From NCBI GenBank assembly GCA_029555085.1, contig JAKPTO010000026.1:63435-127434 (forward strand): a DNA stretch of 64,000 nt, given 5' to 3'. Made by a program: the position numbers and the translations under genes. The notes beneath the pieces were generated by a model. It saw only the letters and a program-made list of their open reading frames with translations, searched no databases and had not been told where the DNA came from. Shown piece after piece: positions 25,337-30,540 of this stretch (position 1 is the stretch's first letter; every line of letters starts with the position of its first letter). This DNA comes from a bacterium. Its GTDB lineage: Bacteria; Patescibacteriota; Patescibacteriia; UBA1558; S5-K13.

Positions 25337-27017
25337 ATTTTTGCTGATAAGTTAAATAATTATTATTTTCTTTTGAAAATACTATAATAATAGAATCTTC
25401 AAGTTTTTCACTTAATATTTCTATTATTTTTATAATATCATTATAATTCAAATCAATCCAAATATTGTCAATAATAATAAGTTGTTTTTTATTAACTATG
25501 CAATGGAGCGCTTGAAGAGCAAAGCATGAAACATTATTATTAAAAGCCAACACACAAGAAGAATTAACATTATTTATAGAAGATATTTTTGATGCAATAA
25601 ATTGATTTTCAGATATTACCTTGATCACATTTTCAATTTCAGAAGAATTAATTTGTTCTTTATCTTTCCCTAAAATAAACTCCATCAAACTTTTTTCTGA
25701 AAATATTTTAGGATCGAAAAAATATGCGCCACAGAATAATTTTTGCCATATTGGATAATCATATCTTTTATTGTCTATTTTCACCTTCATTGCCTTGGGA
25801 TTATAAATACGCATTCCTGCAAAAATTTTAGCCAAACTTGTTTTTCCTGAAAAATTCTCTCCAAAAAATAAAATTCTTTCTGATTTTTTAAAATGAAAAT
25901 CTAGATTTCTGAAATATTTACCATCTTTAAATAATTTTGTTTTTTTTGCGTGAAACAATATTTCATTATGAATTTTTAAAGTATTTTTTCTACGCAAAAC
26001 TGCTCCTTTTTGCAATACTGTTAAAAACAAACCCAATCTTGCTGGAAAAAAATATAAACCAACTCTTAGCGCTTGATTAAGTGTTCTTGGAAAATAGAAC
26101 ATTAAAAATAAAAATAAAAATCTATTATCTCTACCAAGTAAATTTATAAAAGAAAAAAACTCATTTGTAAAAAAATTGCTTAAAATTACAATTATCAAAA
26201 CTATCACAAATACAATTTTTGCGCTTATTCCAATCCAAAGATTTCTTCTAATGCGAAAAAAAGAATCTATATTAACAAGACGATCAAACTTTTGTAGCAC
26301 ACTATCTTCATTATTAAAATTTTTATTAAAATATTTTTCTGATAAGCTAATATCGATATGTTTTATTATTTGTGAATAAAAAGTGACTTCTTGCGAAATA
26401 TATTTTTTTGCAACATAATAAGCTATTATTCCTATAAGAATAGAAAGTGCCACGAAAAAAACGAAAACAATAAATAAATTTAATCCTATTAAATATGCAA
26501 TGAGCATTGCCACAGAAAAATATATGAACCATCTAATTATTCCAAAAAAAACAATTGATACACCCATTGAAACAAGCGATAATTGATAAGAAATTTTTGC
26601 TATTAACCTACCCTGCCTTTCGTTGTTCATTGTTTCAACGGGTCTATCAATAAATGATTTAAATATTCTGCGCCTAATATCATTTGCAAATAATACCACA
26701 ATAGTTTTTTCTTGTTTTATAGAAAAAAATGAACTTATGATAAACAACAATATAAAAATAGCAAAAAATTGCCAAAAAAATGGGTCTAAAATACTATTTA
26801 GCTGAGATAATTTATTTCTACTAAATACAATAAGAAACGCTTCTATTACACAGGAAACAAAAATTAAAAGAACAAGACGCAAAATATAAAATTTATATTT
26901 TTTAAAAAAATCTCGTAAATACCCGTAATGTAAAAACGATAATTTTATATCTTTGTATTTATTCCTTGTTTTTCTAATTTCTTTTATTAATCTAATTTGT
27001 TCTTTTATTTCTTTCAT
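25302..27017 (-). CDS. ABC exporter-like protein (TMD plus degenerate ATPase)
   Basis: About 6 TM helices with DIRRRIFKSF and GRLIAKI intracellular-loop-like segments. Walker A GENFSGKT, Walker B-like LIIIDN, no LSGGQ. Confidence 0.75.
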   Translation of the reverse strand: MKEIKEQIRLIKEIRKTRNKYKDIKLSFLHYGYLRDFFKKYKFYILRLVLLIFVSCVIEAFLIVFSRNKLSQLNSILDPFFWQFFAIFILLFIISSFFSIKQEKTIVVLFANDIRRRIFKSFIDRPVETMNNERQGRLIAKISYQLSLVSMGVSIVFFGIIRWFIYFSVAMLIAYLIGLNLFIVFVFFVALSILIGIIAYYVAKKYISQEVTFYSQIIKHIDISLSEKYFNKNFNNEDSVLQKFDRLVNIDSFFRIRRNLWIGISAKIVFVIVLIIVILSNFFTNEFFSFINLLGRDNRFLFLFLMFYFPRTLNQALRVGLYFFPARLGLFLTVLQKGAVLRRKNTLKIHNEILFHAKKTKLFKDGKYFRNLDFHFKKSERILFFGENFSGKTSLAKIFAGMRIYNPKAMKVKIDNKRYDYPIWQKLFCGAYFFDPKIFSEKSLMEFILGKDKEQINSSEIENVIKVISENQFIASKISSINNVNSSCVLAFNNNVSCFALQALHCIVNKKQLIIIDNIWIDLNYNDIIKIIEILSEKLEDSIIIVFSKENNNYLTYQQKYELGDEIRKIT

Positions 27018-28209
27018 AATGAAAGTCTAAATAAAAATTATATAATGATTTTATTTTTAAATATTCTATCTCTTTTCTTAACAACCTTCTGTTGCGTGGT
27101 GAATATTTACCAAATATAAAATCTGTTAAAATACGGAAAAAATCTTCTGATAATTTTTTTATTTGTTCTGAGTTATTGATTTGTGGTTTATCTTTTATAA
27201 TTTTTTGAAATTGGTAGTTAAAATTTTTTTCTGGATGTCCCATAATCCTTCTCAGTAAATACTTTTTTTTACTTAAATTATAATTTTTATATTTTAAAAT
27301 ACTTTTCCAACCAGCAATAATACGCTTAATATATGATTTTTCTAAACTAATAATTCCTGAATTAAAGCAGTAGCCTAAAAAAGAAAAATTTTCTTTTGCA
27401 TCACCAATAAATAATTTGCTATTATTTATTGTTAAATTTCTAATATTCAAATCTTTGATAATTTCTAATTTTAATTTATTTAGCTTGTCTATGTTATTAT
27501 CAAAAATACCTATATCATCTCCTATTCTTATATAAAATGAACATTGTTTTTGATATTTATGATCAAGGTCTGTTAAATATAAATTATTAAAAAGTGCTAT
27601 TAGTGGAACACCCTGGACAAGACCTATATCAGGTGCTTCTATCTTACCATTTTTATATATTTTATTAAAAATAAATAATTTTAATAAATCTAATATTTTT
27701 CTATCTTCAAAAATGTTTTCCAGTTGTGAGTATAAAACATTCTTATCAATCAAGTCAGAATAGTTTTCCAAATCTAACACTAATGCTTTGTCTGTAGAAA
27801 AATTTTTCCTATATCTATGGCAAAAATTTTTTGCTGCAAAATATGGTGGCTTGCCCGGCCTATATGAAAACAATCTTTTTGAAAAAACTTTTTCAAATTC
27901 TGGTAATAAAACTCTATAAATTGCCTGTGCTTTTATACGATCTTTTATATTATAAATAAAAATATCCCTGAATTTCTCGGGATTATTTTTTTTAGGAATT
28001 GAAACAATAAGTGCTGGCTCAATTTCCCTATTTTCAACTAATTCTTTTTGACAAATATCTATAAGCTCCTTTGAATTTAAATCTCTGTCTTGTATTGAAA
28101 TATTATCCAAACCGTGATATCTAAAACTTTTACTATCTATAGAAAATTTTTCCACTATATCTAAATAAGCAGATCGAATATTATCATAAGATACAATTTT
28201 ATTAAACAT
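26992..28209 (-). CDS. Divergent reverse transcriptase (group II-like core, IGDD catalytic motif)
   Basis: RT motifs in order: GLDN, IPKKN, RDIFIYNIKDRIKAQA, FSYRPGK, LDLENYSDLID, GLVQGVPL..LFNNLYL..LD, YIRIGDDI, LTINNSK and FSFLGY. Confidence 0.9.
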   Translation of the reverse strand: MFNKIVSYDNIRSAYLDIVEKFSIDSKSFRYHGLDNISIQDRDLNSKELIDICQKELVENREIEPALIVSIPKKNNPEKFRDIFIYNIKDRIKAQAIYRVLLPEFEKVFSKRLFSYRPGKPPYFAAKNFCHRYRKNFSTDKALVLDLENYSDLIDKNVLYSQLENIFEDRKILDLLKLFIFNKIYKNGKIEAPDIGLVQGVPLIALFNNLYLTDLDHKYQKQCSFYIRIGDDIGIFDNNIDKLNKLKLEIIKDLNIRNLTINNSKLFIGDAKENFSFLGYCFNSGIISLEKSYIKRIIAGWKSILKYKNYNLSKKKYLLRRIMGHPEKNFNYQFQKIIKDKPQINNSEQIKKLSEDFFRILTDFIFGKYSPRNRRLLRKEIEYLKIKSLYNFYLDFHYERNKRTN

Positions 28210-28407
28210 ATTTTTAAAAATCGTCCTCAGGATATATAATAAAAATACTATATATTAATAAATCTAATGAAGACCCCCGTCCACAAACTGGTTACAACCG
28301 TTTCCATTTTAATTAATTCGATATTAACGAATATAAAAAATTAAAACTAAAACGATTATTAATATCTCCTAAAATAGGAGTTTTGAGGATGATTTTTAAA
28401 AGTACAT
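28206..28407 (-). ncRNA. Candidate structured RT-associated ncRNA / 5' leader (retron a1/a2-like closure)
   Basis: Inverted repeat 28384-28401 vs 28212-28229 (17/18 match), nested stem 28354-28365 vs 28252-28264 and several internal hairpins. Lies between a promoter and the RT start. Confidence 0.65.
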
Positions 28408-28412
28408 AATAT

Positions 28413-28421
28413 ATTATAGCA
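28413..28421 (-). promoter_or_regulatory. Extended -10 promoter (TGCTATAAT) for the RT operon
   Basis: Perfect TGnTATAAT on the minus strand, just upstream of the 5' inverted-repeat arm. Confidence 0.65.
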
Positions 28422-28461
28422 TGTCAATAAAGCGTATGTAAAGAATAAATATATAATTTTG

Positions 28462-28470
28462 TGATATAAT
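28462..28470 (+). promoter_or_regulatory. Extended -10 promoter for a leaderless recG transcript
   Basis: TGATATAAT 6 nt before the recG ATG. Confidence 0.6.
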
Positions 28471-28476
28471 TAATCT

Positions 28477-30540
28477 ATGAATCTAGATACAACACTTGAT
28501 AAAATCTACGGAATAGGTCCAACAATCTATAAAAAATTACAAAAAATCGGATTAAATACAATATCTGATGCTATTTTTTATTATCCATTTAGATATGAAG
28601 ATTTTTCCCATTTAAAACAAATAAATGAGCTTGTAAATGAAGAATCTGCCACTATAAAAGGAAAAATCATACTTTTAAACAATAAGAGATCTCCTAGAAA
28701 AAAAATGAATATCACTGAAATGCTTTTAGGAGATGATTCCGGACAAATTCAGATAATTTGGTTTAATCAACCATATATTAAAAATATATTACAAATTGGA
28801 GATGAGATATTTGTTTCAGGTGTTGTAAAAAAATCACTTTTGGGATTATCACTTATAAATCCAAATTATGAAAAAACTAATAGAGACACATCACACACTG
28901 CAAGAATTATTCCTATATATCCATCAACAGAGCATTTATCACAGAAACAACTTAGATACATAATAAAACAATCCTTGTCTTGTATAAATGAATTACATGA
29001 AAGGTTACCAAGTCAAATTATTAAAAAAGAAAATTTAATAGAAATAAAAGAGGCAATAAAACAAATTCACTTTCCAGATAATTATAAAAAATTAGATCTT
29101 GCAAAAAAAAGATTATCATTTGATGAAATATTTTTATTATCATGTTTATCAAAATTTATTAAAAAACAAAATATTGAATTAAGCGCTCCTCAAATTAATT
29201 TCAAGGAAAAACAGATAAAAGATTTAGTAAAAAAAATTCCATTTAAATTAACAGAAGATCAAAGAAAGGCAACCTGGCAAATTCTAAAAGATATTAGCCA
29301 CAAAATTCCAATGAATAGACTTCTTGAAGGCGATGTAGGAAGTGGAAAGACAATTGTTTCTTTTATCTGCGCTTACAATGTAATCTTGAACAAATATCAA
29401 GCAATTTTAATGTCTCCTACTCAGATTTTAACAAAACAACACTTTGAAAATGCTGTAAAATTTTTCAAGGACTATGATATTAATATTTTACTTTTTACAA
29501 ACTCTGACAGATTATTATTTAATGGAAAAAAACAATTAGCACAAAAATTAACAAAAAAAGAAATTAATAAGTTTGTCAAAAAATCTGATTTTATAATAGG
29601 AACTCATTCTTTAATTCAGCAAAATGTAGAATTCAAAAATATTGGGCTCATAATAATTGACGAGCAACACAGATTCGGAGTTAAGCAGCGTCAAGAATTA
29701 ACAAAAAAATCAGATATTAGTCCACACTTTTTATCAATGACTGCAACTCCAATTCCAAGATCTCTAGCGCTTACAATTTATGGAGATTTAGATATTTCAA
29801 AAATTTTACAAAAACCAGCAAACAGAAAAAAAATTATTACAAAATTTGTATATTCTCGCAACAGAACAAAAGCTTATGAATTTATTTATAACCAGATCCA
29901 AAACGGCAGACAAGTTTTTGTTGTGTGTCCACTTATAAATGAATCGGATAAATTAGGAGTAAAATCCGTAATGAGTGAATATGAAAAATTAAGCAACGAC
30001 ATTTTTCCAAATTTAAAAATAGAATATTTACATGGAAAAATGAAAGAAACAGAAAAGCAAAAAATTCTAAAAAGTTTTTCTGACAATGAAACAAAAATTT
30101 TAGTATCAACTTCTGTTATTGAGGTTGGAATTGATTTTCCAAATGTAACAATAATGATAATTGAAGGTGCTGATAGATTTGGATTGGCATCACTCCATCA
30201 ATTTCGAGGTCGTGTTGGTCGCGGAGAACATCAATCATTTTGCTTTTTATTTTCTGAATCAAACTCAGAAAAATCCCGTAAACGTTTAGAAATATTAACA
30301 AAAACAGATAATGGATTTGAACTCGCAGAATATGATTTAAAATTTCGTGGAAGTGGAGATTTGTATGGAATAAAACAATCAGGATTTATGAATGGAGTGA
30401 AAATTGCAGATTTATCAGATTTAGAATTAATCAAAAAATGCAATATTTGGGCTCAATATATTTTTGAAAAAGGTCTTGAAAAATTCCCTCAAATAAAAAA
30501 AGAGATAGAATTACTATCTTCTGATATTCACTTGGAATAA
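28477..30540 (+). CDS. recG: ATP-dependent DNA helicase RecG
   Basis: MNRLLEGDVGSGKT, DEQHRFGV, MTATPIPRSL and LHQFRGRVGRG. Confidence 0.98.
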   Translation: MNLDTTLDKIYGIGPTIYKKLQKIGLNTISDAIFYYPFRYEDFSHLKQINELVNEESATIKGKIILLNNKRSPRKKMNITEMLLGDDSGQIQIIWFNQPYIKNILQIGDEIFVSGVVKKSLLGLSLINPNYEKTNRDTSHTARIIPIYPSTEHLSQKQLRYIIKQSLSCINELHERLPSQIIKKENLIEIKEAIKQIHFPDNYKKLDLAKKRLSFDEIFLLSCLSKFIKKQNIELSAPQINFKEKQIKDLVKKIPFKLTEDQRKATWQILKDISHKIPMNRLLEGDVGSGKTIVSFICAYNVILNKYQAILMSPTQILTKQHFENAVKFFKDYDINILLFTNSDRLLFNGKKQLAQKLTKKEINKFVKKSDFIIGTHSLIQQNVEFKNIGLIIIDEQHRFGVKQRQELTKKSDISPHFLSMTATPIPRSLALTIYGDLDISKILQKPANRKKIITKFVYSRNRTKAYEFIYNQIQNGRQVFVVCPLINESDKLGVKSVMSEYEKLSNDIFPNLKIEYLHGKMKETEKQKILKSFSDNETKILVSTSVIEVGIDFPNVTIMIIEGADRFGLASLHQFRGRVGRGEHQSFCFLFSESNSEKSRKRLEILTKTDNGFELAEYDLKFRGSGDLYGIKQSGFMNGVKIADLSDLELIKKCNIWAQYIFEKGLEKFPQIKKEIELLSSDIHLE

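Follow-up and report, generated by a model that had tools for sequence, protein, structure and literature searches.

The DNA analysed here is a 64,000-nt stretch of a patescibacterial genome (positions 63,435 to 127,434 of contig JAKPTO010000026.1, assembly GCA_029555085.1), referred to below as the window; all coordinates are those of the whole window. On its minus strand the gene of a reverse transcriptase (RT) is preceded by a leader of about 200 nt, for which a retron-like, self-closing RNA fold had been predicted from the sequence. The leader was found to be a genuine structured RNA, self-closing, linked to the RT, conserved and covarying. The reading that we favour, with moderate confidence, is that this pseudoknotted non-coding RNA (ncRNA) is the dedicated partner of group-II-intron-like RTs that form a hitherto undescribed clade, and that RNA, RT, an ABC-exporter-like protein and a PLD-family protein make up one accessory cassette scattered in Patescibacteria. 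Retained beside the RT in dozens of species, the RNA thus probably marks a new RNA-plus-enzyme system and not a classical retron.

A closed RNA fold upstream of the RT gene

The minus strand was read back from 28410 to 28200, and sequence and coordinates agreed with the original prediction. As claimed there, a 5' arm (28401-28384) pairs with a 3' arm (28229-28212) at 17 of 18 positions. In the minimum free energy (MFE) fold the closing helix, designated P1, includes the proposed AUGUA/UAUGU extension and comprises 22 pairs (28407-28384 with 28229-28206). The longest inverted repeat of the region, obtained by an inverted-repeat search, was 28209-28229/28384-28404 (21 nt, 90% complementary). Since the open reading frame (ORF) of the RT extends over 26992..28209, its AUG (28209-28207) lies inside P1.

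Among the tests proposed with the original prediction were folding of the leader against dinucleotide-shuffled controls and a search for covariation upstream of RT homologues. In the first of these the 211-nt leader gave an MFE of -54.7 kcal/mol, compared with -32.6 ± 3.95 kcal/mol for 200 dinucleotide-preserving shuffles, none of which folded as well (z = -5.59). The best promoter-like site of the region (28442..28413, minus strand) predicts a transcription start at about 28406, adjoining the 5' end of P1, which fits the start at about 28407 proposed before; promoter-like sites as a class were not enriched in the region (5 seen, 8.7 expected). On the minus strand no terminator-like site separates the RNA from the RT. 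A search with Rfam covariance models over 27000-29500 (E up to 10) gave no match on the element and only two chance matches elsewhere, and the RNA region contained no tRNA and no ORF longer than 28 aa; small ORFs of 22-28 aa were considered and dropped. The features of the locus, all on the minus strand, are as follows.

28442-28413: predicted promoter-like site, -35 TTTACA (28442-28437), 18-nt spacer, TG-extended -10 TATAAT (28418-28413), 11/12 matches
28407-28206: whole structured RNA of about 200 nt (fold z-score; match of covariance model R1, see below, at 28204-28410, 125.7 bits, E = 1.6e-25)
28407-28384: P1, 5' arm (MFE fold; 14/15 core pairs compensatory in clade A)
28384-28380: J1/2, single-stranded linker AAAAC, nearly invariant in the alignments of the family (AAAAC, AACAC, ACAAC)
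28380-28366: P2, hairpin CUCCUA-UUU-UAGGAG (fold and alignments)
28366-28360: pseudoknot 5' strand GAUAUUA, immediately 5' of the P3 base (6/7 pairs compensatory in clade A, 6/6 in clade B)
28359-28294: P3, long hairpin of 20 + 5 pairs with tip hairpin 28332-28316 (MFE fold; 14/16 pairs compensatory in clade B)
28326-28320: pseudoknot 3' strand UAAUAUC, located in the loop at the tip of P3 (alignments, covariation)
28293-28260: P4, variable region with the GC-rich patch, and conserved junction CUUCAUUAGA (family consensus CCUCAUUGGA; alignments, comparison of tandem copies)
28255-28232: P5, hairpin adjoining the P1 3' arm (MFE fold; 10/11 pairs compensatory in clade A)
28229-28206: P1, 3' arm including the RT start codon 28209-28207 (MFE fold and ORF)
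28209-26992: RT of 405 aa, Pfam RVT_1, group-II-intron-like, motif RIGDD (profile, sequence and structure comparisons)

Conservation and covariation of the RNA

Sixty loci related to that of the window were taken from species-representative genomes. In the closer homologues the elements follow each other in a shared order: P1 5' arm, single-stranded AAAAC, P2, GAUAUUA, P3 with UAAUAUC in its loop, P4, a junction, P5 and P1 3' arm. The conserved junction after P4 and before P5 is CCUCAUUGGAUUUAAU. The RNA is about 200 nt long in the window, where P4 is short and holds the GC-rich patch, and reaches about 300 nt in relatives; the length of P1 in the family is 15-25 bp.

Covariation was evaluated in two sets of sequences. 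For clade A, 35 upstream sequences were aligned by MAFFT without regard to structure, and 33 pairs were counted. In this alignment 91.0% of the cells were paired, compared with 37-50% when the partners were slid, and compensatory (both-side) changes were found in 30 of the 33 pairs; none of 500 shuffles reached any of these measures. RNAalifold, run on the same alignment, selected P1, the GAUAUUA/UAAUAUC pairing and P5. Clade B consisted of 16 sequences whose RTs are 32-45% identical to the window RT and which lay outside the training set of R1. A separate MAFFT and RNAalifold run on these sequences again yielded P1, with 22 pairs, as well as P2, P3 including the tip hairpin, and P5, with 94.7% of the cells paired and 53 of 59 pairs compensatory, a result that was equalled by none of 500 shuffles. 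P1 and the pseudoknot were kept row by row in clade B, with new sequences, and the pseudoknot was paired in 100% of the cells. The two pseudoknot strands change in step (GAUAUUA/UAAUAUC, GAUGCCG/CGGCAUU, GAUAUCA/UGAUAUC, GGCAUUA/UAAUGCC, GGUGUUA/UAACACC, GGUAUCG/CGAUACC), and members with 44-55% G+C retain the same fold. These results show that the RNA fold consisting of P1, P2, the pseudoknot, P3 and P5 is under selection, and the prediction of a structured RNA thereby withstood the refutation test that had been set for it.

Among the inner elements of the original prediction, the hairpins at 28380-28366 (P2), 28332-28316 (tip of P3) and 28255-28232 (P5) proved to be conserved in the family. 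Two others, the nested stem 28365-28354/28264-28252 and the hairpin 28303-28285, had to be rejected as conserved helices: in the 35 sequences only 218 of 350 cells (62%) and 53 of 105 cells (50%), respectively, were paired, as against 91-95% for real helices. Positions 28303-28294 form the 3' side of the long stem of P3, and the strand 28365-28360 pairs with the loop 28326-28321 in the pseudoknot.

A long P3-type hairpin carrying the pseudoknot strand in its loop was recognised in 41 of 49 members, the loop strand being unpaired in the local fold. P3 is near-constant in size, with 15-24 enclosing pairs and segments mostly of 78-92 nt. In this topology the tip loop of P3 pairs with the strand that immediately precedes the base of P3. 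A straight P3 helix is too long to touch its own base; P3 may fold back at its internal loops, the two pairings may alternate, or the contact may be made between two RNAs in a symmetric dimer.

Linkage of the RNA to the RT

The covariance model R1 was built from the clade-A alignment only and was used with a threshold of E ≤ 0.001. Loci were taken as usable (59) if the RT start was present and enough upstream DNA was available; L052 (116 nt upstream) and L058 (RT start missing) were excluded. R1 matched upstream of the RT, on the RT strand, in 52 of the 59 loci, 47 of them with default filters and five in filter-free searches. Filter-free searches gave no match for L045, L047, L051, G339 (L086) and G394 (L087) and a sub-threshold match for L085 (E = 0.032); with default filters L042 scored E = 0.26, and no match was obtained for L059 and L061, which were searched with these filters only. 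L035, which contains N, was omitted from the summary of R1 positions and from the AUG-pairing folds described below. No R1 match occurred in 18 RT loci from outside the family (L063-L080), nor in 73 RT-less genomes of the class. The RNA thus accompanies the RT throughout the RT family, and none was detected in the RT-less genomes and non-family RT loci that were searched. At every locus at least 183 nt of non-coding DNA precede the RT.

At L003 the RNA is located 2 kb upstream of the RT, and two type-IV-pilin-like genes intervene. The same locus (L003:794-3992) holds three tandem paralogous type-IV-pilin-like genes (N-terminus KAFTLIELLVVIAIIGILA), with the RNA between the first and the second.

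Two tandem RNA copies were found before a single RT at three loci (L009:3512-4006, L037:917-1514 and L062:3386-4006). The copies were compared for the L037 and L009 pairs, with approximate segment borders. In L037 the conserved parts were identical at 79/83, 29/30, 20/20 and 44/49 positions and P4 at 70/110; in L009 the core was identical at 79/88 positions and P4 at 2/11. The close pair L005/L006 had the same divergent pattern, with 5/13 identical positions in P4.

Four genomes contain two paralogous cassettes (L007/L031, on the same contig, L013/L043, L006/L060 and L037/L049), and in each of them the two RNAs differ in the sequences of the pseudoknot and P1. Such divergence could keep the systems apart, or could merely reflect the differing clades.

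The RT belongs to a separate group-II-intron-like clade

In profile searches the window RT scored highest (131.9 bits) with PDLC01136, a model of generic or cas-type RTs, on which true CRISPR-type and RT-Cas1-type proteins reach 227-305 bits. The score with the group II intron RT/maturase model TIGR04416 was 124.9 bits, which does not reach the curated cut-off of 300. Lower scores were obtained with UG26 (107 bits, compared with 508-520 for the true members L067 and L080, so that the RT is not a UG26 protein), RT-Cas1 (101 bits), UG17 (86 bits), UG27 (61 bits), Drt9 (56 bits) and the best retron models, RT_IX (23 bits) and RT_II-A (21 bits). The solved relatives found by a sequence search of the PDB were group II intron RTs and a Cas6-RT-Cas1 only, and no retron RT was found at E ≤ 0.001. 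An AlphaFold model of the RT (pLDDT 90.9) was compared with known structures by Foldseek. TM-scores were 0.75-0.81 with the GsI-IIC group II RT, 0.72 with G2L4, about 0.68 with DRT9 and with the RTs of diversity-generating retroelements (DGR), and 0.47-0.49 with retron RTs. The catalytic residues D146, D231 and D232 are invariant in the family, the motif being R-[IV]-G-D-D. The nearest genomic relatives outside the family are RT-Cas1 fusions, an RT-PrimPol and stand-alone G2L-type RTs; no Cas1 domain was found in the RT or in four neighbouring ORFs that were scanned. Taken together, the profile scores, the fold match and the catalytic motif place the RT in a distinct group-II-intron-like clade, and not among the retron RTs.

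Partner RNA or leader of the operon

The RNA could also be a purely cis-acting leader of an RT-ABC-PLD operon, working as an RT autorepression site or as a riboswitch-like sensor with no role as a template or as a scaffold of a ribonucleoprotein (RNP). There is a precedent for autorepression in LtrA, the group II intron protein that represses its own translation via domain IVa. Without exception the RNA shares the strand of the RT, and at 51 of the 52 loci where it was detected it reaches as far as the RT start; in the window the promoter-like site stands directly upstream of it. In thermodynamic folds of 34 clade-A sequences, for which the 5' ends were guesses, the 12 nt preceding the AUG were within P1 in most cases, and the mean pairing probability of the AUG exceeded 0.5 in 20. 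Folding was preferred here because the 5' flank of the MAFFT alignment is poorly aligned: on that alignment the exact register of the AUGUA/UAUGU extension, present in the MFE helix of the window, is only 61% paired. Sequestration of the RT start codon, as originally proposed for the window, is thus common among these folds but not universal; it does not apply to L031-L034, where P1 stops 20-35 nt before the AUG, nor to L003 with its distant RNA. According to the folds, burial of the RT start region is frequent in the family, not obligatory. Besides these exceptions, a role as leader alone is disfavoured by the tandem copies, which vary chiefly in P4, by the lack of an evident alternative "on" fold, and by the pseudoknot and P1 sequences, which drift with the RT clade, whereas a ligand pocket would stay fixed. 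We therefore think it unlikely, though deserving to be kept in mind, that cis-regulation is the whole story. As a second role it is compatible with a partner RNA, and regulation of RT translation by P1 in addition to the partner function is likely.

Several observations are better accounted for by a partner RNA than by a plain leader: the large, covarying, pseudoknotted fold, its strict linkage to one RT clade, the clade-wise drift of the helices, the tandem copies that differ in one hairpin region, the one case of separation from the RT, the two fixed accessory proteins and the patchy distribution of the cassette.

A number of points weigh against the partner reading. Seven of the 59 loci gave no significant R1 match, and in a search of 80 genomes with strict filters only three of the seven RT-bearing genomes were matched; filter-free searches upstream of the RTs of the other four gave E = 0.0026 (G128), E = 0.032 (G089) and no match (G339 and G394). 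The position of the RNA, abutting the RT gene on the same strand in all matched loci except L003, with no terminator seen between them, and the burial of the start region in P1 would equally be expected of a cis-regulatory leader. Hypervariability of P4 is not universal, since in the close pair L015/L018 P4 is identical at 30/30 positions. No defence-island context was seen at the loci, where the neighbours are housekeeping genes or large Pfam-less proteins. In the accessible parts of the texts consulted, group-II-like RTs are not known to require a template ncRNA, and G2L4 works without one. That the RT binds the RNA, that the RNA exists as a separate molecule and that it is copied into DNA is what we infer. 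Among public sequencing runs, 19 DNA runs contain the stretch and may be its source, and one RNA-library run contained 5% of its words; the single contig from this RNA library (160 nt, depth 2) consists of 28202-28297 followed by 64 nt of unrelated sequence, and is neither proof of transcription nor informative on RNA ends or cDNA.

The match of this 160-nt contig is exact and spans the RNA's 3' half plus the initial 8 nt of the RT ORF, and its unrelated 64-nt end has an A-run. Possible explanations are a chimera, a strain variant and a processed or tailed RNA. An apparent joint of 27310 to 28526 in one DNA contig was dismissed as spurious, as it consisted of 22-28-nt matches at 88% likeness.

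Comparison with retrons and group II introns

The locus was originally described as retron-like, and in architecture it is. In retrons, too, the RT gene is directly preceded on its own strand by a structured RNA, the paired ends of this RNA (a1/a2) resemble P1, a conserved 5' part is followed by variable hairpins, accessory genes are located downstream, and the distribution is patchy. Flanking inverted repeats upstream of the RT are present here as the 22 pairs of P1, covarying in both clades. If the system were a true retron, P1 would correspond to a1/a2, P2-P3 to msr and P4-P5 to msd, and priming from a 2'-OH in J1/2 would yield branched multicopy single-stranded DNA (msDNA). However, the RT is outside the retron clade by profile score (21-23 bits with retron models as against 132 with the generic RT model) and by fold, and the original remark that no G directly follows the 5' arm holds for the family: the linker contains a G in no more than 3 of the 35 sequences of clade A and 1 of the 16 of clade B. 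P1 is also much longer here (15-25 bp), the RNA has a covarying pseudoknot, and the accessory genes encode a membrane ABC-like ATPase and a PLD protein. Because of the wrong RT clade and the missing conserved G, the classical retron mechanism appears improbable.

Still less probable, to the point that we give it very little credence, is a group II intron remnant, in which part of the intron RNA would have stayed behind in front of an intron RT that had been domesticated. Group II intron RTs are the nearest relatives of the RT; however, no Rfam intron family was matched even at E up to 10, the fold has no element resembling domain V/VI, and the ORF of the ABC-like protein overlaps the end of the RT, so that there is no 3' intron part. 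Moreover, the covariation indicates current selection on this particular fold. Chance self-complementarity of a functionless AT-rich spacer, to which the 24% G+C of the region and the abundance of short inverted repeats in it (24 pairs in 331 nt) might point, is refuted by the covariation and can be practically dismissed; the z-score of the fold and the more G+C-rich members that share it also speak against it.

Comparison with other RT systems

By the measures used, neither RT nor RNA belongs to group II introns, UG26, UG17/DRT10, UG27, CRISPR-associated RTs or any Rfam family. The general pattern of the cassette resembles that of retrons and of class 2 UG systems. The closest formal analogue found appears to be UG27, which, according to the accessible part of the preprint (bioRxiv 10.64898/2026.09.22.753630), consists of an RT, two accessory proteins without known domain and an ncRNA array; every ncRNA unit keeps its structure, and its variable hairpin in the centre, located between conserved flanking motifs, is copied by the RT into a cDNA of 50-100 nt. 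The two systems share an RT, two accessory proteins and repeatable ncRNA units with a constant structure and a varying central hairpin. They differ in the RT (61 bits on the UG27 model), in the accessory proteins (ABC and PLD here, unrelated to those of UG27), in the number of RNA units (one or two here, tandem in 3 loci only, and not arrays) and in their hosts, which here are Patescibacteria chromosomes with 1 IMG/VR match and, in the same part of the preprint, prophages for UG27.

The RTs of UG27, DRT2, DRT9 and DRT10 are described, in the portions of the sources available to us, as using adjacent structured ncRNAs as templates (PMC12632851; bioRxiv 10.64898/2026.09.22.753630), with a 137-nt ncRNA acting as a telomerase-like template in DRT10/UG17 (PMC12632851). 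UG17 was formerly classed as the group-II-like G2L3, according to the accessible text of PMC8632793. The window system may resemble the class 2 UG systems DRT10/UG17, DRT9 and DRT2 in the dependence of the RT on an adjacent structured ncRNA; as far as these sources go, the RNAs also have in common a closing helix, together with a pseudoknot or stem-loops that surround conserved single-stranded segments. The window RT differs from those of DRT10/UG17 and DRT9 (86 bits with UG17, 56 bits with Drt9). The gene order, given as ncRNA-SLATT-RT for DRT10 in the part of the source seen, is ncRNA-RT-ABC-PLD here; profile scans of the window cassette found no SLATT partner, and no repeat-type template (A-B-A') was recognised in the RNA.

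Nearest in sequence and fold are G2L4, the GsI-IIC enzyme and the CRISPR-associated RTs. For G2L4 and the CRISPR-associated RTs, in contrast to the window RT, no dedicated upstream ncRNA is on record in the accessible parts of the texts examined, and the CRISPR-associated RTs differ further in their much higher scores on PDLC01136 and in their association with Cas1, which is lacking in and beside the window RT.

Proposed mechanism and significance

In the mechanism that we envisage, the RNA would be transcribed from its own promoter, jointly with the RT mRNA. The RT would bind the conserved core formed by P1, the AAAAC of J1/2, P2, the pseudoknot and P3, and use the RNA as a scaffold and probably as a template. 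By analogy with retrons, UG27, DRT2, DRT9 and DRT10, the variable P4 hairpin or hairpins, flanked by the CUCAUUG junction, would be the likeliest template for a short cDNA. With the start region buried in it, the long P1 would hold translation of the RT at a low level. The window genome encodes an RNase III that could cut P1, a helix of 20-25 bp and thus a plausible substrate, freeing the RNA and leaving an RT mRNA with a short leader. The ABC-like and PLD proteins would act as effectors or co-factors.

We would go further only tentatively, and with less confidence than in the partner role itself: the cassette may represent a new class of RT systems, the first that is specific to the ultra-small Patescibacteria, in which the RT copies the variable hairpin of the pseudoknotted RNA into a short cDNA and the RNP controls, or works with, a degenerate, membrane-bound ABC ATPase and a PLD nuclease, with a function in defence against phages or in dealing with foreign nucleic acids at the membrane. 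If so, the fixed length of P3 and the pairing of its loop with its base would mean that, at the core of the complex, the RNA either folds back or forms a symmetric dimer.

No description of the RNA or of the RT-ABC-PLD cassette was found in the full-text literature and RT surveys, as far as these were accessible; the supplements of PMC9226505, PMC8632793 and the DRT10 and UG27 preprints, which were outside the search, may list related RT groups. The RNA and the cassette are apparently undescribed, and belong to a kind that is already known, that of RTs accompanied by a structured ncRNA of their own and by accessory proteins.

The RT-plus-ncRNA systems (retrons, DRT2, DRT9, DRT10 and UG27) have each revealed a new mode of making DNA, and some are now tools of genome engineering. 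To our knowledge, all characterised systems of this type derive from retron or UG/Abi RTs. Patescibacteria have 1-Mb genomes with few accessory systems, and their biology is mostly unknown. If the partner reading is correct, the RT-plus-ncRNA principle would be extended to a group-II-intron-like RT clade, to ABC-like and PLD partners and to Patescibacteria. The RNA offers a testable handle: its ends are defined, its covarying pseudoknot can be disrupted and re-formed, and P4 is a candidate for the template.

The accessory genes, their distribution and their neighbourhood

Downstream of the RT, on the same strand, the window contains the two accessory genes, identified from their ORFs and by profiles.

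27017-25302, minus strand: ABC-exporter-like protein of 571 aa, membrane domain and ATPase, overlapping the RT end by 26 nt
25336-24122, minus strand: PLD-family protein of 404 aa with an N-terminal hydrophobic helix, overlapping the end of the ABC gene by 35 nt

The order RT, ABC-like, PLD with overlaps was complete in 56 of the 60 loci, and the other four are cut by contig ends. Throughout the family the ABC-like protein retains the GKT of Walker A and has D-N in place of D-E in Walker B; no conserved ABC signature motif was seen across the family. In the PLD protein the first HKD motif is canonical family-wide, and the second is HxH..D. The membrane anchoring and the degenerate ATPase suggest, as judged from sequence, that the two proteins are an effector or sensor pair; a lipid-related role would also be possible.

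Of 401 genomes sampled from the class, 7 carried the RT, that of the window included, and its occurrence is therefore sporadic. The window genome (1.02 Mb in 53 contigs) has one copy. The named homologues come from Patescibacteria (Falkowbacteria, Magasanikbacteria and Parcubacteria). IMG/VR contained a single relative of the RT, so that there is no sign of a phage-borne element. Many records of metagenome-assembled genomes (MAG) that carry the cassette are titled "uncultured Gammaproteobacteria bacterium", which is probably a generic or wrong label.

In the window the cassette is flanked by recG, divergent and upstream, and by a rubrerythrin gene downstream. The flanking genes vary among the loci, recG and rubrerythrin recurring once each. 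In two RT-less genomes of the same family no rubrerythrin gene was found within 1.5 kb of recG, and the borders of the cassette could therefore not be defined by an empty site. Other upstream neighbours encode a DEAD helicase, a GMP synthase, a glycosyltransferase, an FAD oxidase or large proteins without recognised domains. Such large ORFs (1055-1222 aa, no Pfam domain) stand directly upstream and on the same strand at L044:378-3680, L047:48-3716, L048:108-3689 and L062:172-3339, all in clade B.

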